Shown here one piece after another: positions 58,485 through 63,593 of a stretch of DNA of 64,000 bases (position 1 is the first letter of the stretch; every line of letters begins with the position of its first letter). A program made the translations under genes and the position numbers. The notes below the pieces were generated by a model that saw only the letters and a program-made list of their open reading frames with translations, made no database searches and was not told the origin of the DNA. Source of the stretch: a phage; the sequence record OZ346164.1. One strand, given 5' to 3'.

Positions 58485-58513
58485 TTGACAATGTGTTTAA
58501 TACCCTTTAATAT
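58485..58513 (+). promoter_or_regulatory. sigma70-like promoter upstream of tRNA cluster
   Basis: TTGACA-17-TAATAT, flanked by AAGGGTATT/AATACCCTT inverted repeat. Confidence 0.5.
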
Positions 58514-58630
58514 GTTCTACATAGTAGCGAAATGAGAGCTTTTCTAAGATACTGAAAAATATTTTAAAAAAGTTCTTGACAATCACTAAAAAATAATGTT
58601 AAAGTGGTTACATAGAGTTTGAAAAGTTTA

Positions 58631-58708
58631 TCTCTGTTTAGCTCAGCTTGGTAGAGCGTTCCGTTTGGGGCGGTAAGGCCGGAGGTTCAAGTCCTCCAAC
58701 AGAGACCA
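58631..58708 (+). tRNA. tRNA-Pro (anticodon UGG)
   Basis: 7 bp acceptor, D stem GCTC/GAGC, loop TTTGGGG, T arm GGAGG-TTCAAGT-CCTCC. Confidence 0.75.
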
Positions 58709-58715
58709 AATTAAT

Positions 58716-58793
58716 GTTCCAGTAGACAAAATGGTATAGTCACCACTCTTTCAAAGTGGATATCTGAGGGTTCAAATCCCTTCTGGAACGCCA
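58716..58793 (+). tRNA. tRNA-Glu (anticodon UUC)
   Basis: Acceptor GTTCCAG/CTGGAAC, anticodon stem CCACT/AGTGG, loop CTTTCAA, encoded CCA. Confidence 0.75.
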
Positions 58794-58883
58794 GTTTTGA
58801 CAGAAGACCAATTACAGCAAACTTAATCTACTCATCTGAAAGTTAATCGGACAAAGAAGATATTTGGTCTGGTCATTAAGAAT

Positions 58884-58960
58884 TGCGGGTATAGAGAAAG
58901 GGCGTCTCACATGTCTCATTAGCATGGTATCGGCAGGTTCGACTCCTGCACCCGCCTCCA
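58884..58960 (+). tRNA. tRNA with anticodon CAU (Met or Ile2), 1-72 mismatch
   Basis: Loop CTCATTA, T arm GCAGG-TTCGACT-CCTGC, acceptor pairs 2-7 only. Confidence 0.6.
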
Positions 58961-59042
58961 AATTTACAGAAGACCGTTTACAGCAATATTTATTAAATTT
59001 TTAGCGGAAAAATTGAAAGATACGGTCTGGTAATACTAAATA

Positions 59043-59120
59043 TGGTTAGGAAGCACATAAGGTATGTGCGGTCGCCTGTTAAGCGAATGGCACAGGGTTC
59101 GAATCCCTGACTAACCGCAA
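59043..59120 (+). tRNA. tRNA-Asn (anticodon GUU)
   Basis: D stem GCAC/GTGC, loop CTGTTAA, T arm CAGGG-TTCGAAT-CCCTG. Confidence 0.7.
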
Positions 59121-59128
59121 AATTAAAT

Positions 59129-59216
59129 GTGTCGTTATCCCGTAGATGGTAGCGGTGGGGACTGTAAATCCCTTGTCATTGAGACTCGGTAGGTTCGACT
59201 CCTACACGGCACACCA
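59129..59216 (+). tRNA. tRNA-Tyr (anticodon GUA), long variable arm
   Basis: Acceptor GTGTCGT/ACGGCAC, loop CTGTAAA, about 15 nt variable arm, encoded CCA. Confidence 0.75.
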
Positions 59217-59221
59217 ATAAA

Positions 59222-59298
59222 GGCTATGTAGTTTAACTGGAGAAAATACTCCCCTGTCACGGGAGATGATGTGAGTTCAAGTCTCATCGTAGCCGCCA
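59222..59298 (+). tRNA. tRNA-Asp (anticodon GUC)
   Basis: Acceptor GGCTATG/CGTAGCC, stem CTCCC/GGGAG, loop CTGTCAC, encoded CCA. Confidence 0.75.
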
Positions 59299-59499
59299 AT
59301 TTTGAGAGGGCTATTTAGCCCCTCCCTTAAAGAGTTCTTACGAGTATTCTTTAAAGGAGCAGAAGACCAAATACAGCAAGAATGTATGATATTTTCAAGC
59401 CAATTCAATTTTGAAAAATTTAAAACTTGGTCTGGCTCAACAAATTTACAGAAGACCGTTTACAGCAAAACTTAAACAATCTATTTCTCGGTAAAGAAA

Positions 59500-59540
59500 A
59501 GGCGAAGGTTCGATTCCTTCACTCGGCAGAGGTCGAGTTG
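59500..59540 (+). ncRNA. tRNA-like T-arm plus acceptor minihelix (not a full tRNA)
   Basis: GAAGG-TTCGATT-CCTTC T-arm-like hairpin directly followed by ACTCGGC-AGAG-GTCGAGT hairpin and D-loop-like GTTGGTGTAATGGTAG. Confidence 0.4.
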
Positions 59541-59730
59541 GTGTAATGGTAGCACTTAAGATGATAAACAACGGTCTGGTAATTATCTTTGCAGTAGCTT
59601 ATGTGGCTAATTATGTCGTCCCATGAGTGCCGATGAATTTCCTTAGCATGATTCTAGATTAGCTTAATAGGAAATGACTCTACAGACCCTTTAGCAAGGT
59701 CTGCGTAGGTTACTGCAAAGATGATTTAAT

Positions 59731-59806
59731 GGAAGTGTAGCAGAATGGTGATGCGGCAGACTTTTAATCTGACAGGCGATGGGTTCGAATCCCTCCACTT
59801 CTACCA
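59731..59806 (+). tRNA. tRNA-Lys (anticodon UUU)
   Basis: Acceptor GGAAGTG/CACTTCT, loop CTTTTAA, TTCGAAT T-loop, encoded CCA. Confidence 0.65.
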
Positions 59807-59811
59807 AAAAT

Positions 59812-59888
59812 GGTTCAGTCGCAGATAAGGTAATGCAAGGGTTTCATAAGCCCTATGAATGTGGGTTCGATTCCCATCTGAACCTCCA
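59812..59888 (+). tRNA. tRNA-Met (anticodon CAU)
   Basis: Acceptor GGTTCAG/CTGAACC, stem AGGGT/GCCCT, loop TTCATAA, encoded CCA. Confidence 0.7.
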
Positions 59889-59890
59889 AT

Positions 59891-59966
59891 GCTGTGAAAG
59901 CACATATGGATGTGCATTCGGCTGATAACCGAAAGGCAGAAGGTTCGAATCCTTCTCACAGTACCA
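59891..59966 (+). tRNA. tRNA-Ile (anticodon GAU)
   Basis: Stem TTCGG/CCGAA, loop CTGATAA, T arm GAAGG-TTCGAAT-CCTTC, encoded CCA. Confidence 0.75.
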
Positions 59967-59982
59967 ATTTCAATAAAGTTGT

Positions 59983-60010
59983 TGACATTAAGATGTGACT
60001 ACTTTATAGT
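59983..60010 (+). promoter_or_regulatory. sigma70-like internal promoter in tRNA cluster
   Basis: TTGACA, 16-17 bp spacer, TATAGT. Confidence 0.5.
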
Positions 60011-60214
60011 AACCTTAGTTTTCGTTGCGTAGCGTCTATTTTGCAAATTTAAAATAAATGCAAACGACAATGTTTTTCTGGCAGTAGCTTGATAGGCTAA
60101 ACACCAGTGAGGTCTTCCAATCCCTCATCAAAGAATTTGGCGTACTCGCCCACGGTATGATTAATAAGGTGGGCATCTTTAAGGGCTTTCTAATAGAGTC
60201 TTTAAAGATAATTA

Positions 60215-60296
60215 CGGGGCGTATCTCAGCGGTCTTCTAAACCGCCGTTAACCGAGTAAGTGGAGTATGCGGGTTCGAGTCCTGCCGCCTCGACCA
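60215..60296 (+). tRNA. atypical tRNA-like gene, possible anticodon UCU (Arg)
   Basis: Good T arm and acceptor (CGGGGCG/CGCCTCG, CCA encoded) and GCGGT-CTTCTAA-ACCGC anticodon-like hairpin, but D-arm spacing non-canonical. Confidence 0.35.
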
Positions 60297-60439
60297 ATTT
60301 AGTTAGCAGATTACTTAGACGACCTAAGCGGGTCTTCCTGTAGGGAGGTGGTCTGTATCTCATGTTTTCCAGAACATGTAAATAATCTGAGAAGGGGCTT
60401 TACAGTGTTGAGATAATACGGTAAGCTTCGAATTATAGT

Positions 60440-60522
60440 ATGGGACGATGTTAAGACTCTAAGGCATGAGCAACGGCCTCCAAAACCGTTTCAAAGGGGT
60501 TCAACTCCTCCGTCCCATGCCA
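60440..60522 (+). tRNA. tRNA-Trp (anticodon CCA), enlarged D region
   Basis: Acceptor ATGGGAC/GTCCCAT, loop CTCCAAA, TTCAACT T-loop, CCA encoded; about 7 extra nt in D region. Confidence 0.5.
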
Positions 60523-60535
60523 AAGTCTTATTAGG

Positions 60536-60623
60536 GGTAGGTAGCGGCTAATGGCAGCCAAACAGTCTTGAAAACTGTTGCCACTGTAGAGATACGGTGA
60601 GGGTTCGACTCCTTTACTTACCG
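60536..60623 (+). tRNA. tRNA-Ser (anticodon UGA), long variable arm
   Basis: Acceptor GGTAGGT/ACTTACC, stem ACAGT/ACTGT, loop CTTGAAA, about 20 nt variable arm. Confidence 0.7.
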
Positions 60624-60881
60624 CCTAATAAGATTTTAAAGCCAAGCTTCATTCGGATGTCGCTTTGGTATCCCTCGTGTATTGTCGTACACACTGATAA
60701 AACACCTAGTAGGTGTCACGGAGAAGAGATAATATCAAGCTCTCCAAAGGTTCTAGTCACCGGATTAAACAAGACTATGCAAAGACCTTTTTAGGTCTTT
60801 TTAGAGGGCTTCTAAGGTTATTACAGCTTGTTGTGGAACCTTGTTGCTTAGGTTCTTAGAAGTTCTCTAAAAAGATTTAAT

Positions 60882-60958
60882 GCACCTATAGCCCAACTGG
60901 TAGAGGCAGCAGACTTAGAATCTGCTCAGTGTGAGTTCGAATCTCTCTAGGTGTACCA
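60882..60958 (+). tRNA. tRNA with Leu anticodon UAG but short variable arm
   Basis: Stem GCAGA/TCTGC, loop CTTAGAA, discriminator A, CCA encoded; only 5 nt variable loop. Confidence 0.55.
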
Positions 60959-60965
60959 AATTAAT

Positions 60966-61041
60966 GCAGGTGTAGCAAAATGGTTATGCGGCTGACCCTT
61001 AATCAGTAAGACGATGGGTTCAATTCCCTCCACCTGTACCA
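60966..61041 (+). tRNA. tRNA-Lys (anticodon CUU), tentative
   Basis: Acceptor GCAGGTG/CACCTGT, loop CCCTTAA (C at position 33), CCA encoded. Confidence 0.5.
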
Positions 61042-61047
61042 AACAAT

Positions 61048-61123
61048 GGGGTCATAGTTTATATGGTTAAAATTCGAGTTTTGCAAACTTGGGAACTGAG
61101 TTCAATTCTCAGTGACTCCACCA
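61048..61123 (+). tRNA. tRNA-Ala (anticodon UGC)
   Basis: Acceptor GGGGTCA/TGACTCC, loop TTTGCAA, T arm CTGAG-TTCAATT-CTCAG, CCA encoded. Confidence 0.7.
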
Positions 61124-61129
61124 ATTAGT

Positions 61130-61204
61130 GCATCCATAGTTTAAACGGGAAAATTACAGTCTTCCAAACTGAGGTTGAGGGTTCGATTCCCTCTGGATGC
61201 TCCA
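61130..61204 (+). tRNA. tRNA-Gly (anticodon UCC)
   Basis: Perfect acceptor GCATCCA/TGGATGC, loop CTTCCAA, T arm GAGGG-TTCGATT-CCCTC. Confidence 0.8.
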
Positions 61205-61211
61205 AATTAAT

Positions 61212-61287
61212 GCTCCTATCGTATAATTGGTTATTACGGTTGCCTTGTAAGCAACTTATCAGGGTTCGAGTCCTTGTGGGAGCACCA
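61212..61287 (+). tRNA. tRNA-Thr (anticodon UGU)
   Basis: Stem GTTGC/GCAAC, loop CTTGTAA, TTCGAGT T-loop, CCA encoded. Confidence 0.8.
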
Positions 61288-61290
61288 ATT

Positions 61291-61380
61291 CAGAGGTCAA
61301 GTGAAAGACCGCTTTGAGTCAACTGAAGACCGTAACAAATTCCACGAAGTTGAGTTAGCGGCACAACTTCAGACCTCTTT
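61291..61380 (+). ncRNA. long structured hairpin element between tRNAs
   Basis: CAGAGGTC ... GACCTCTT closing stem around about 75 nt containing GAAGACCG motifs; no T-loop. Confidence 0.35.
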
Positions 61381-61383
61381 CAT

Positions 61384-61458
61384 ACTCGCTTAGTTTATAT
61401 GGTAAAACATCACCCTTACAAGATGAAGAAAAAGGTTCAAGTCCTTTAGTGAGTACCA
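61384..61458 (+). tRNA. tRNA-Val (anticodon UAC)
   Basis: D stem GTTT/AAAC, loop CTTACAA, T arm AAAGG-TTCAAGT-CCTTT, CCA encoded. Confidence 0.7.
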
Positions 61459-61459
61459 T

Positions 61460-61537
61460 GTTCCAGTATCCCAATTGGCAGAGGATGCAAGCTCAAACCT
61501 TGTATTAGTGACGGTTCGAATCCGTCTTGGAACACCA
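61460..61537 (+). tRNA. tRNA with Leu anticodon CAA but short variable arm
   Basis: Stem GCAAG/CTTGT, loop CTCAAAC, T arm GACGG-TTCGAAT-CCGTC, discriminator A, CCA encoded. Confidence 0.55.
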
Positions 61538-61542
61538 ATTTT

Positions 61543-61618
61543 GCAGGATTAGTTCAAATGGATAGAGCAACAGTCTACGAAGCTGCTAATAGGGGTTCGA
61601 ATCCCTTATCCTGCGCCA
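61543..61618 (+). tRNA. tRNA-Arg (anticodon ACG)
   Basis: Perfect acceptor GCAGGAT/ATCCTGC, D stem GTTC/GAGC, loop CTACGAA, CCA encoded. Confidence 0.8.
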
Positions 61619-61637
61619 ATTTAAAGAGGCTATTTAG

Positions 61638-62195
61638 ATGAGATATTTGAAGTATGCTTCATGGATTTTCTTAGCTTTGTTAGAGCCATTTGCAGCAATC
61701 TTAGCAGTTATCTTAGCACCTTTTGTAGTTCCATTCTACAGTGAGAAGAAAGGGCACTTACCTTTCGGGTTCAGATGGATGGAGACATATGACAACCCAA
61801 TTGATGGTGATGAAGGTCACGTTAAAAGATGGGCTAATATTAGATGGATTGGTAAACTAGGTGTCTACATGCAAAGAGTCGGATGGCTCTGGAGAAACAA
61901 AGCTTATAACTTCTCTTACCATGTATTAGGAAGAGATGTAAGAGATGTTACTAAGTGGAAAGGTAATATCAACGTAAGTTCTGACCCCGAAGATAATCAG
62001 ACAGGTTATCTCCTAATGTGGAACAGTAATGCTTGGGGATTATTCGCTTTTATCCCATCAATTAAAATCTTTGGTAAACAATTTTACTGGAGAATTTATA
62101 TTGGATGGAAACTAAAAAGTGTTGTCCCAGAAGAAAGAGCATTCTCAAGGGAAAGAGTTATGTTGGCATTCTTTATTCATCCACTGAGAAAGTAA
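61638..62195 (+). CDS. membrane protein encoded inside tRNA cluster
   Basis: 185 aa, hydrophobic N-terminus, Trp-rich. Confidence 0.45.
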   Translation: MRYLKYASWIFLALLEPFAAILAVILAPFVVPFYSEKKGHLPFGFRWMETYDNPIDGDEGHVKRWANIRWIGKLGVYMQRVGWLWRNKAYNFSYHVLGRDVRDVTKWKGNINVSSDPEDNQTGYLLMWNSNAWGLFAFIPSIKIFGKQFYWRIYIGWKLKSVVPEERAFSRERVMLAFFIHPLRK

Positions 62196-62203
62196 AGATT
62201 TAA

Positions 62204-62279
62204 AGGGGATTAGTTTACAAGGTTAAAACCTCGGTCTTTGAAATCGAAGAAGTTGGTTCAATTCCAACATCCCCCGCCA
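62204..62279 (+). tRNA. tRNA-Gln (anticodon UUG)
   Basis: D stem GTTT/AAAC, stem TCGGT/ATCGA, loop CTTTGAA, T arm GTTGG-TTCAATT-CCAAC. Confidence 0.7.
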
Positions 62280-62281
62280 AT

Positions 62282-62360
62282 GCTCCATTACTCCAATTGG
62301 CAGAGAGGCCAGACTTAAAATCTGTGTTATGTATCGGTTCGAATCCGATATGGAGTACCA
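62282..62360 (+). tRNA. tRNA with Leu anticodon UAA but short variable arm
   Basis: Loop CTTAAAA, T arm ATCGG-TTCGAAT-CCGAT, discriminator A, CCA encoded. Confidence 0.5.
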
Positions 62361-62365
62361 AATTT

Positions 62366-62441
62366 AGCGGTATAGCATAACTGGCAATGCAGCAGCCTCT
62401 GAAGCTGTCCTATTAAGGTTCAAATCCTTATGCCGCTGCCA
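62366..62441 (+). tRNA. tRNA-Gln (anticodon CUG)
   Basis: D stem GCAT/ATGC, stem GCAGC/GCTGT, loop CTCTGAA, T arm TAAGG-TTCAAAT-CCTTA. Confidence 0.65.
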
Positions 62442-62472
62442 CTTCTAAGGATTCTTGCGAGAGTCCTTAAAT

Positions 62473-62548
62473 GTGGCCTTATCATAAACGGTAATGACCC
62501 ATGCTGTGAACATGGTCTATACGGGTTCAAATCCCGTAGGTCACCCCA
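62473..62548 (+). tRNA. tRNA-His (anticodon GUG)
   Basis: D stem TCAT/ATGA, stem CCATG/CATGG, loop CTGTGAA, T arm ACGGG-TTCAAAT-CCCGT. Confidence 0.8.
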
Positions 62549-62553
62549 ATTTA

Positions 62554-62630
62554 TAGTCCAAGTAGCTTATATGGTTAAAGCGCGTGTCTGAAAAACATGA
62601 GAAGAGAGTTCAAATCCCACTGGACTACCA
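62554..62630 (+). tRNA. tRNA-Phe (anticodon GAA)
   Basis: Acceptor TAGTCCA/TGGACTA, stem CGTGT/ACATG, loop CTGAAAA; T stem weak. Confidence 0.6.
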
Positions 62631-62646
62631 ATTTCAAAGGTGCTTA

Positions 62647-63381
62647 ATGAAAGAGATGACAGAACAAGGTAAGGAGATTTTTAATCTCTTAAAAACTGGT
62701 AAAGGGTTCTCTAACCCGCTTATTACTGGTGCAGCAGTTCTCGGTGGAACCGTAGCTGCCTCTACATCACTTGTAAGCTCTATTAGTTCTGTAACAGACC
62801 CTACAATGAAGGAGAAGCTTGTTGCTGCTGGACTTACAACAGTCCTTCTAAACAGCTTTACAACAAGCCTGACAAGCACTACAGCAACCACTAAGACCCT
62901 AACAGACTATGGTCAAAAGTCTATTGATGAGTTTTCATCACGTATGCAGGTAGCAAAGGGATACTCCAATGTTATGGGTGCAGCAGGAGAACAAGTTGGT
63001 TGTACACCATTCAGTGGTATTATGGGTGTTGCTACAGAATATGGTCAAAAAGCTATTGATACGATTAACAGTACACTAGAGAGTGTTAATGGTGTGTTAA
63101 GTGACTTACAAGATGCTATTGATAAGGGTCTTGATACTGTTTCTGATTTAGCTAATCAGGCTGTTAGTAAGATTAATGAAGGTATTTCAAAGATTACAGC
63201 TTATGCAGATGAAGTTGTGCAGATGATTGAAGAAGAAGCTGCCCTTATTGCAGAGTACCTTAAAACGAATATCAATGGGTTCTTAGCAGGTATCTTACCA
63301 GACTGGTTTGATGATGCTTGTAAAACTGGTGTAATCGACACTATTGCAACACCAGAAATGAAGAACGCATTGCAGAAATAA
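62647..63381 (+). CDS. hypothetical protein encoded inside tRNA cluster
   Basis: Start moved to Met after tRNA-Phe (track start 62584 overlaps the tRNA); Ser/Thr/Ala-rich helical protein. Confidence 0.45.
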   Translation: MKEMTEQGKEIFNLLKTGKGFSNPLITGAAVLGGTVAASTSLVSSISSVTDPTMKEKLVAAGLTTVLLNSFTTSLTSTTATTKTLTDYGQKSIDEFSSRMQVAKGYSNVMGAAGEQVGCTPFSGIMGVATEYGQKAIDTINSTLESVNGVLSDLQDAIDKGLDTVSDLANQAVSKINEGISKITAYADEVVQMIEEEAALIAEYLKTNINGFLAGILPDWFDDACKTGVIDTIATPEMKNALQK

Positions 63382-63382
63382 T

Positions 63383-63475
63383 GGAAGATTAACCCTAAAA
63401 GGTAAGGGAGCAGTTTGCTAAACTGCCAGTAGCTGAGAAATCGGTGTACCAGTTCAAGTCTGGTATCTTCCTCCA
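63383..63475 (+). tRNA. tRNA-Ser (anticodon GCU), long variable arm
   Basis: Perfect acceptor GGAAGAT/ATCTTCC, stem GCAGT/ACTGC, loop TTGCTAA, long extra arm. Confidence 0.75.
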
Positions 63476-63480
63476 ATTTT

Positions 63481-63555
63481 GAATCCGTGACAGAAATGGA
63501 TATGTGCCTGTCTGCAAAACAGGTTTATAAGGGTTCAAGTCCCTTCGGATTCTCC
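63481..63555 (+). tRNA. tRNA-Cys (anticodon GCA)
   Basis: Perfect acceptor GAATCCG/CGGATTC, stem CCTGT/ACAGG, loop CTGCAAA, CCA encoded. Confidence 0.8.
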
Positions 63556-63593
63556 AAGTTATTTTACTCTCTCTCAATTAAAATAATAATAAT

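Follow-up and report, generated by a model that had tools for sequence, protein, structure and literature searches.

Three tRNA-Leu genes with a short variable region in the tRNA cluster of a Felix O1-like phage

Bacterial transfer RNAs for leucine (tRNA-Leu) normally feature a long variable arm. Within the phage sequence OZ346164.1, of which a stretch of 64,000 nucleotides (nt) was analyzed (64 kb, in the following referred to as the window), three tRNA genes comprise leucine anticodons but a short, type I variable region, which raises the question of what these genes encode and how their products could be recognized. A first-pass annotation, made from the letters of the sequence, had left two possibilities, namely unusual phage tRNA-Leu or tRNAs whose identity differs from what the anticodon implies. 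ARAGORN, run over the whole window, and the Rfam tRNA family RF00005 (gathering score 29) returned the three genes with coordinates identical to those of the first-pass annotation:

60882..60958, plus strand: tRNA-Leu(UAG), 77 nt, type I; called by ARAGORN, 57.3 bits in Rfam
61460..61537, plus strand: tRNA-Leu(CAA), 78 nt, type I; called by ARAGORN, 44.0 bits in Rfam
62282..62360, plus strand: tRNA-Leu(UAA), 79 nt, type I; called by ARAGORN, 47.5 bits in Rfam

With E-values from 9e-11 to 4e-7, the membership of the three genes in RF00005 is far beyond chance. Both tools placed the anticodon loop in the same register, and the agreement of ARAGORN and Infernal rules out an alternative one. A canonical long-arm tRNA-Leu had not been missed, since neither ARAGORN nor Rfam revealed one in the window. 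Further tRNA-Leu genes of any kind were found neither by ARAGORN in the 64 kb nor by Rfam at E<=1 between 58000 and 64000, nor by the relaxed, intron and mitochondrial modes of ARAGORN between 59300 and 60900.

An arm-by-arm parse of all 25 tRNAs of the cluster, together with the predicted cloverleaves, confirmed that the three genes have CTTAGAA, CTCAAAC and CTTAAAA as anticodon loops, A as discriminator (A73) and an encoded CCA. In Leu(UAG), the acceptor stem GCACCTA/TAGGTGT with a G1-U72 pair is followed by U8 and A9, a D stem of 3 base pairs (bp; GCC/GGC) and the D loop CAACTGGTAGA. The anticodon arm GCAGA-CTTAGAA-TCTGC carries A37 and not G37, the variable loop TCAGT comprises 5 nt with U48, and the T arm GTGAG-TTCGAAT-CTCTC contains a U50-U64 mismatch. 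Leu(CAA) consists of the acceptor stem GTTCCAG/TTGGAAC with a G7-U66 wobble, U8 and A9, the D stem TCC/GGA with the D loop CAATTGGCAGA, the anticodon arm GCAAG-CTCAAAC-CTTGT and the T arm GACGG-TTCGAAT-CCGTC. Its variable region ATTAGT has a length of 6 nt, or of 5 nt if U26-A44 is paired as in the ARAGORN drawing. Leu(UAA) shares the D loop CAATTGGCAGA on a D stem CTC/GAG, preceded by the acceptor stem GCTCCAT/ATGGAGT with G1-U72 and by U8 and A9. Its anticodon arm CCAGA-CTTAAAA-TCTGT contains a C27-U43 mismatch as well as A36A37A38, and the variable region GTTATGT of 7 nt with U48 leads to the T arm ATCGG-TTCGAAT-CCGAT. The assignment to type I made in the first-pass annotation is thus correct, but the variable regions span 5-7 nt in the parse and not 5-8 nt. 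None of the three tRNAs forms a stem-loop variable arm of more than about 10 nt as in class II, and all three combine a leucine anticodon and a variable loop of about 5 nt with a leucine-type core.

The elements described as essential for the leucyl-tRNA synthetase (LeuRS) of Escherichia coli are A73, the A15-U48 pair, G18G19, A20a and the tertiary pairs between D and T loop (PMC9976931; list in PMC6614811). Neither the anticodon nor the long arm is required by this enzyme (in the following EcLeuRS), and variants without both arms stay active (PMC9976931). The full reported set is present in the phage tRNAs, which favors the first of the two possibilities. A73, U8, A14 and the A15-U48 Levitt pair occur in three out of three, with the D loop CAAYTGG... 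placing an A at both position 14 and position 15. G18G19 and A20a are likewise found in all three, where the D loop measures 11 nt, the D stem 3 bp and 13:22 is a C-A mismatch, and the common T loop TTCGAAT keeps the partners U54-A58, U55 and C56. Among the 25 parsed tRNAs of the cluster, this leucine-type D arm was found in no other. Determinants of other synthetases are absent: there is no G3-U70 pair (alanine), no G73, and no long arm combined with G73 (serine) or U35 (tyrosine), and the anticodons UAG, CAA and UAA are read by none of the anticodon-dependent synthetases. The second possibility, an identity differing from the anticodon, is therefore unsupported.

Five tRNA-Leu genes of E. 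coli K-12 (leuZ, leuW, leuX, leuU and leuT) were parsed beside the phage genes. Host and phage tRNAs share A73, the 3-bp D stem, U48 and a D loop of 11 nt, the register of which is the same for A14, A15, G18G19 and A20a (RAATYGGTAGA in E. coli, CAAYTGGYAGA in the phage). The anticodons UAA, UAG and CAA occur on both sides, and the G1-U72 pair of leuZ and leuU is shared by two of the phage genes. Differences were observed for the variable arm, which comprises 13-15 nt in E. coli compared to 5-7 nt in the phage, for position 9 (G compared to A) and for the T loop, where four host genes have TTCAAGT and the fifth, leuX, has TTCGAGT, compared to TTCGAAT in the phage. Altogether, it is likely that the three genes represent functional tRNA-Leu of type I form which, to judge from these features, would be charged by the host LeuRS and act as supplementary decoders of UUR and CUN codons.

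In an infected cell of E. coli or Salmonella, the cluster would be transcribed by the host RNA polymerase and the transcript processed by host enzymes. Host LeuRS would then add leucine, reading A73 and the shape of elbow and core, the latter given by A14, A15-U48, G18G19/A20a in the 11-nt D loop on the 3-bp stem, and U54-A58/U55/C56. During decoding, the UAA anticodon would serve UUA and UUG, CAA would serve UUG, and UAG would serve CUA and CUG and probably CUU too. Transcription, processing, leucine charging and use in translation are all steps that we infer for this phage. According to ARAGORN, the three genes encode the only leucine decoders carried in the 64 kb. In the 42 long open reading frames (ORFs) of the window, the GC content of which is 38.9%, leucine codons were distributed as UUA 0.237, UUG 0.149, CUU 0.277, CUC 0.057, CUA 0.114 and CUG 0.167. 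In E. coli, about every second leucine codon is CUG and the least used one is CUA, with the CAG isoacceptor as the dominant tRNA-Leu. Compared to this host usage, the set of UAA, CAA and UAG covers the over-used codons, so that the three tRNAs would supply codons which the AT-rich phage uses far more often than its host.

The contrast to the serine and tyrosine tRNAs of the same cluster, for which long arms had been noted, was verified in the parse:

58632..63556, all on the plus strand: tRNA cluster of 25 ARAGORN-called genes, syntenic with the annotated cluster of Felix O1
59129-59216, plus strand: tRNA-Tyr, long-arm comparator with a variable arm of 15 nt
60536-60625 and 63383-63475, plus strand: two tRNA-Ser, long-arm comparators with variable arms of 20 and 21 nt

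The remaining 19 tRNAs of the cluster showed variable regions of 4-6 nt. For seryl-tRNA synthetase (SerRS), the size of the long arm is the major determinant, and bacterial tRNA-Tyr are long-armed (PMC9976931). Since SerRS and the bacterial tyrosyl-tRNA synthetase (TyrRS) depend on the arm, its retention in the serine and tyrosine tRNAs of the phage can be explained.

The phage is a Felixounavirus, and along its entire length the region shows 95-97% identity to genomes of this group (JLBYU32, heid, Felix O1 and about 370 other records). The comparison with related phages, which had been recommended as a check, showed that the records of Escherichia phage JLBYU32, heid and Salmonella phage Felix O1 annotate three tRNA-Leu at homologous positions. 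Thus, the three genes are not new, but their architecture has apparently gone unremarked. Leu(UAA) is represented by one identical sequence in all 23 Felix-like loci containing it, and Leu(CAA) by 3 sequence variants among 22 loci, which makes covariation within Felixounavirus uninformative. In one Felix-like contig, Leu(CAA) carries G73 and not A73. A comparison of the window (60882-60958) with the loci L001 (4009-4086) and L384-L404 revealed two unrelated short alleles in the Leu(UAG) slot. The allele of the window (GCACCTATAGCCC...) is in the minority with 4 loci; Felix O1 and most relatives carry the other (GGGAGATTGACGG...), a gene of 78 nt with poor pairing in the D stem. HNH endonuclease genes sit between the tRNAs in relatives, and the two alleles suggest a cassette replacement of the Leu(UAG) slot in a cluster interspersed with HNH homing endonucleases.

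Several points weigh against charging by the host enzyme. EcLeuRS is described as charging only type II tRNA-Leu, and it failed on the only natural bacterial type I tRNA-Leu tested with it, the tRNA-Leu(CAA) of Streptomyces coelicolor (PMC6614811). The variable loop of this tRNA, A44 C45 A46 G47 C48, comprises C48 and not U48 (PMC6614811), and we conjecture that the failure with EcLeuRS may simply be due to the want of A15-U48. Furthermore, the position of residue 47n is listed as a contributing element in E. coli, and the crystal structure shows contacts of the enzyme to 47f-47i (PMC6614811). In consequence, the phage tRNAs may be charged less efficiently than the tRNA-Leu of the host. Deviations were also found in the anticodon arm, where Leu(UAG) has A37 compared to G37 in the host leuW, and Leu(CAA) has C38 and is therefore devoid of the A36A37A38 motif. 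The A37 of Leu(UAG) removes the m1G37 site. Due to A37, C38 and the two stem mismatches, the decoding properties may differ. In addition, the variation within Felixounavirus is too small to show selection directly, no experiments on these three tRNAs were found in the literature, and one annotation pipeline designates the Leu(UAG) slot of one relative as 'tRNA-OTHER'. This relative probably carries the other Leu(UAG) allele.

Type I tRNA-Leu is an already known kind from animal mitochondria and S. coelicolor, the behavior of the window genes is well predicted by known identity rules, and the genes are already annotated as tRNA-Leu. The tRNA-Leu(CAA) of S. coelicolor, published in 2019, resembles them in its 5-nt loop ACAGC, the NCAGY pattern of which fits the TCAGT of the window Leu(UAG); a bacterial LeuRS charges it with leucine, with U8-A14 as an important element (PMC6614811). 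Solitary chromosomal short tRNA-Leu of the same architecture are common in Actinomycetota. In contrast to the phage genes, the tRNA of S. coelicolor is chromosomal and not viral, has C48 where the window tRNAs have U48 with A15, and A73 is no identity element for its own LeuRS (PMC6614811). Unlike the tRNA of S. coelicolor, the window tRNAs must work with the LeuRS of E. coli or Salmonella if they are functional. Charging and editing by EcLeuRS without the long arm are described for engineered E. coli tRNA-Leu devoid of variable and anticodon arms (Larkin et al. 2002, as presented in the review PMC9976931), for which A73 and intact tertiary contacts of D and T loop are needed; these are artificial constructs in vitro and not natural genes. 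The tRNA-Leu of animal mitochondria, on the contrary, are natural and devoid of the long arm, with A73 and A14 as determinants (PMC9976931). They are organellar and often floppy, their own LeuRS also touches the anticodon stem, and they show no sequence relationship to the short-arm class described below. The tRNA-Tyr of phage T5 is comparable as a phage-encoded class II tRNA with a variable region unlike that of the host, located in a cluster with homing endonucleases. However, the T5 tRNA has a long arm of altered sequence and demonstrated resistance, whereas no nuclease is known for the leucine tRNAs of the window.

IMG/VR was scanned for anticodon loops with UAA that are separated from a canonical T arm by a type I distance, which gave at least 120 loci. 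Among the loci listed, ARAGORN identified at least 100 short tRNA-Leu(UAA) (<=80 nt), with at least 14 short Leu(CAA) and at least 18 short Leu(UAG) nearby. The ratio of type I to type II was determined, as an unbiased sample, in a single scan spanning both spacings, limited to the T arm GGTTCRANTCC and the UAA anticodon, whose first 80 listed matches contained 69 ARAGORN-confirmed viral tRNA-Leu(UAA). In this sample, 14 of 69 (20%) showed a variable loop of 5 nt, 3 of 69 one of 11 nt and 52 of 69 one of at least 12 nt. The term 'unusual', as used before for the three genes, therefore holds in comparison with the textbook, E. coli and T5, but not for phages in general, since this form accounts for about one fifth of the viral tRNA-Leu(UAA) sampled. 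In viral loci with short tRNA-Leu, tRNA-Ser was long in 31 of 32 and tRNA-Tyr in 16 of 19 cases, as predicted if the arm is lost only where the synthetase tolerates the loss. Short forms in cultured phages comprise Leu(UAG) of 78 nt in Enterobacter phage vB_ExiM_F2M1E (Vequintavirinae), Leu(UAA) of 78 nt in Pseudomonas phage PHB09, and Leu(CAG), Leu(GAG) and Leu(CAA) of 76, 75 and 74 nt beside an 84-nt tRNA-Ser in Mycobacterium phage Cali (Bxz1-like). T5 was rejected as a second coliphage case, since its single tRNA-Leu is an ordinary type II tRNA of 85 nt. The tRNA-Leu of T4 is not known to be short-armed either.

A corresponding scan of bacterial and archaeal genomes, which gives presence and context but not frequency, revealed short tRNA-Leu(UAA) at no fewer than 81 loci (81 of the 120 listed). 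Most of the listed bacterial ones are solitary and lie on large chromosomal contigs of Actinomycetota, including Nocardia, Arthrobacter, Gordonia, Mycobacterium, Streptomyces, Microbacterium, Corynebacterium, Bifidobacterium and others. These actinobacterial genes show a D arm, TA-GCCCAATYGGCAGAGGCA, that hardly varies, and a variable loop of the pattern NCAGT. Six of the listed bacterial loci are arrays from metagenome-assembled genomes of Acidobacteriota, Nostoc and Planctomycetota, with 25-31 tRNAs each. In these arrays (L276, L288, L299, L303, L335 and L364), tRNA-Leu are mostly short and in four of the six all short; L335 and L364 also contain long ones. The statement that bacterial tRNA-Leu are long-armed is thus true in general, but has published (PMC6614811) and widespread exceptions. 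No prior description of short-arm tRNA-Leu in phages was found in the literature covered, a coverage that excludes most subscription journals.

The frequencies of A73, A14, A15, U48 and an unpaired 13:22 were 1.00, 0.90, 0.90, 0.88 and 0.96 in 145 distinct viral short tRNA-Leu. For 153 viral long-arm tRNA-Leu the same five features reached 1.00, 0.95, 0.90, 0.88 and 0.97, and for 80 bacterial short tRNA-Leu 0.97, 0.96, 0.95, 0.91 and 0.94, compared to 0.59, 0.86, 0.50, 0.40 and 0.20 in 867 other type I tRNAs. The consensus of the three window genes and 68 viral short tRNA-Leu is GCnCnnG TA GCCCAAnTGGCAGAGGCA nnnGA CTTAAAA TCnnT nnAGT GTGGG TTCGAAT CCCAC ... A, and Leu(UAG) of the window is nearly equal to the viral short-class consensus. 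Covariation was calculated for 70 distinct sequences including the three of the window. Their alignment was not fitted to the structure, since MAFFT was used without a structural model, although the selection by ARAGORN presupposes a cloverleaf. Cells of the cloverleaf were paired in 93.7% compared to 59.3% after shuffling, and the covariation score was 0.895 compared to 0.208 for shuffled alignments (none of 500 reached 0.895) and to 0.10-0.17 with the partners slid. The three D-stem pairs all showed compensatory changes and were 99% paired, while 13:22 was paired in 4.3% and unpaired in 67 of 70. Position 15:48 was A-U in 61, G-C in 4, G-U in 1 and unpaired in 4 of the sequences, and the commonest 1:72 pair was G-U (36 of 70). 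As far as can be judged from these alignments, the short-arm class is coherent and evidently under selection. Outside the variable region, comparison of the window genes with the viral and bacterial short-arm sets gave median identities of 0.55-0.67 and best values of 0.71-0.82, compared to 0.49-0.62 for the type II tRNA-Leu of E. coli and medians of 0.51-0.58 for viral long-arm tRNA-Leu. Since the window tRNAs are nearer to the short-arm class, they probably do not result from a recent local deletion of the arm in a host-like gene, a conclusion of moderate strength for such short molecules.

The loss of the arm itself can be explained in two ways. By a neutral explanation, an arm that LeuRS can do without was lost, and mobile elements subsequently carried the short form further. 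Alternatively, the arm could have been shed as a handle or cleavage site for defence nucleases, toxins or the phage-induced turnover of host tRNAs. This would result in a nuclease-proof leucine supply, which only tRNA-Leu could provide because SerRS and TyrRS need the arm, and it would add to the charging by host LeuRS rather than conflict with it. Precedents are known, as Retron-Eco7 (PtuAB) and Septu cut E. coli tRNA-Tyr inside the variable arm and the tRNA-Tyr of T5 resists by means of a distinctive variable loop (PMC13096335); phage tRNAs with changes that resist anticodon nucleases are known as well (PMC10264068, as cited elsewhere). Moreover, the short form is enriched in mobile contexts, with about 20% of viral Leu(UAA), tRNA arrays and several unrelated cultured phage families, and the anticodon loop of Leu(UAG) differs from the host in A37 compared to G37. 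Nonetheless, we regard the defence explanation as rather unlikely. A bacterial nuclease targeting the variable arm of tRNA-Leu was not found in the literature, and the bacterial Schlafen studied cuts type I anticodon stems without preference for class II. The idea that bacterial Schlafen proteins target class II tRNAs like the human ones was rejected, since the published cleavage concerns type I tRNAs in the anticodon stem. In many Actinomycetota the short form is the solitary chromosomal tRNA-Leu(UAA), for which defence evasion is no obvious driver, and about 75% of the sampled viral tRNA-Leu(UAA) are long-armed (52 of 69 from the first 80 listed matches), as is that of T5. The extended proposal, in which the short-arm tRNA-Leu of phages, arrays and Actinomycetota form a lineage of their own that spreads horizontally, with selected arm loss and natural charging of type I tRNA-Leu by EcLeuRS, appears similarly doubtful.

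An identity differing from the anticodon would mean that the three tRNAs are charged with another amino acid or remain uncharged, with recoding or stalling at leucine codons as the consequence. The negative result of EcLeuRS with the Streptomyces type I tRNA-Leu (PMC6614811), the missing arm that marks class II and the 'tRNA-OTHER' designation of the UAG slot in one relative fit this idea. It is nevertheless highly improbable, since all positive LeuRS elements are present and the core signature is common to the long-arm viral tRNA-Leu. SerRS needs a long arm and G73 and TyrRS needs U35 (PMC9976931), G3-U70 does not occur, and recoding of UUR and CUN, which account for about 950 codons in the 42 ORFs, would be lethal. 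Even less probable are decaying, non-functional relics (pseudogenes) which recombination would have left behind in a cluster with many homing endonucleases. Aberrant tRNA-like elements do occur in the cluster (59486-59575, 60215-60296 and 60440-60522), HNH genes lie between the tRNAs of relatives, and two of the three leucine tRNAs contain one stem mismatch. On the other hand, the genes form complete cloverleaves with encoded CCA and reach 44-57 bits in Rfam, their sequences are identical or near-identical in 22-23 related genomes, compensatory covariation is very strong in the class to which they belong, and they are the sole leucine decoders of the phage.

If, in E. coli and Salmonella, Felix O1-type phages indeed depend on three tRNA-Leu with short arms, these would represent a natural counter-example and a minimal natural substrate for recognition and editing by LeuRS. 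Should the lineage proposal be true, EcLeuRS would charge type I tRNAs, contrary to the current statement that it accepts type II only, and Felix O1-like phages would carry a nuclease-proof set for leucine decoding. The broader pattern in viruses, tRNA arrays and Actinomycetota appears to be under-described. It affects tRNA annotation, as isotype models expect a long arm, and bears on the debate whether phage tRNAs serve codon supply or defence evasion.

The surrounding cluster had been described as covering all 20 amino acids. This could not be upheld, since a tRNA-Trp is neither called by the standard tools nor present in the database records, and the statement holds only if the aberrant element at 60440-60522 (plus strand) is counted. 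This element, whose acceptor stem is extended and whose anticodon-type loop of 9 nt, CCTCCAAAA, includes CCA, is called as Trp(cca) by the mitochondrial mode of ARAGORN only and reaches a sub-threshold 23 bits with the Rfam tRNA-Sec model. Its identity across 21 related loci is 96.7-100%, and it may be a decoder for tryptophan, a frameshift-prone tRNA or a non-tRNA structure. A second tRNA-like element at 60215-60296 (plus strand) scores 31.7 bits with the Rfam tRNA model (threshold 29) and is not called by ARAGORN. It comprises a 7-bp acceptor stem with G3-U70, A73 and CCA, a normal T arm and a perfect anticodon arm GCGGT-CTTCTAA-ACCGC with the anticodon UCU (Arg AGA). The D arm is missing, with about 5 nt in its place, and the variable region comprises about 20 nt; the identity in 13 related loci is 88-100%. 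The element thus joins the alanine determinant G3-U70 with an arginine anticodon, an odd combination, and could be an aberrant tRNA-Arg(UCU) or a relic. As missed tRNA-Leu, both elements are ruled out by their triplets UCU and CCA.

At 59486-59575 (plus strand), the pieces of a tRNA look circularly permuted. The T arm GAAGG-TTCGATT-CCTTC, the 3' strand of the acceptor stem and an A come first, and after 'GAG' follow the matching acceptor 5' strand GTCGAGT, TG and the D arm GTGTAATGGTAGCAC. Parts are kept in 17 related loci, and the arrangement may represent a scar of recombination or a tRNA-like RNA in permuted form. A repeated motif, CAGAAGACC(R)NTTACAGCAA ... GGTCTGG, was observed in the spacers between the tRNAs (about 58796-58880, 58960-59030, 59360-59440, 59450-59570 and 61320-61380); it may represent a processing or regulatory hairpin or the target of a homing endonuclease. 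Of the 25 tRNAs, only tRNA-Asn (59044-59118, ending in ...GC) and tRNA-Ser(UGA) (60536-60625, ending in ...GCC) are devoid of a complete encoded CCA, so that the CCA-adding enzyme of the host would have to finish them. Promoter-like sites were found at the following positions:

58485..58605, plus strand: two promoter-like sites (58485 and 58576) shortly upstream of the first tRNA, both with TTGACA as a perfect -35 hexamer
59982-60010, plus strand: third promoter-like site with TTGACA and 11 of 12 matches, ahead of the block with the leucine genes

In total, such sites are no more numerous in the region than expected from shuffling, and a role in transcription of the cluster could only tentatively be assigned to them. 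Between the tRNAs lies a gene for a predicted membrane protein of 185 amino acids (61638-62195, plus strand), annotated as 'phage conserved protein' in Felix O1. Relatives with 58-62% protein identity were found on large myovirus contigs of 121-180 kb, and the gene shows about 70% DNA identity to T4-like Escherichia and Klebsiella phages (JS98, VR5 and Klebsiella jumbo-like phages). Its occurrence in these large myoviruses and T4-like phages indicates that the gene travels independently of the tRNA cluster.

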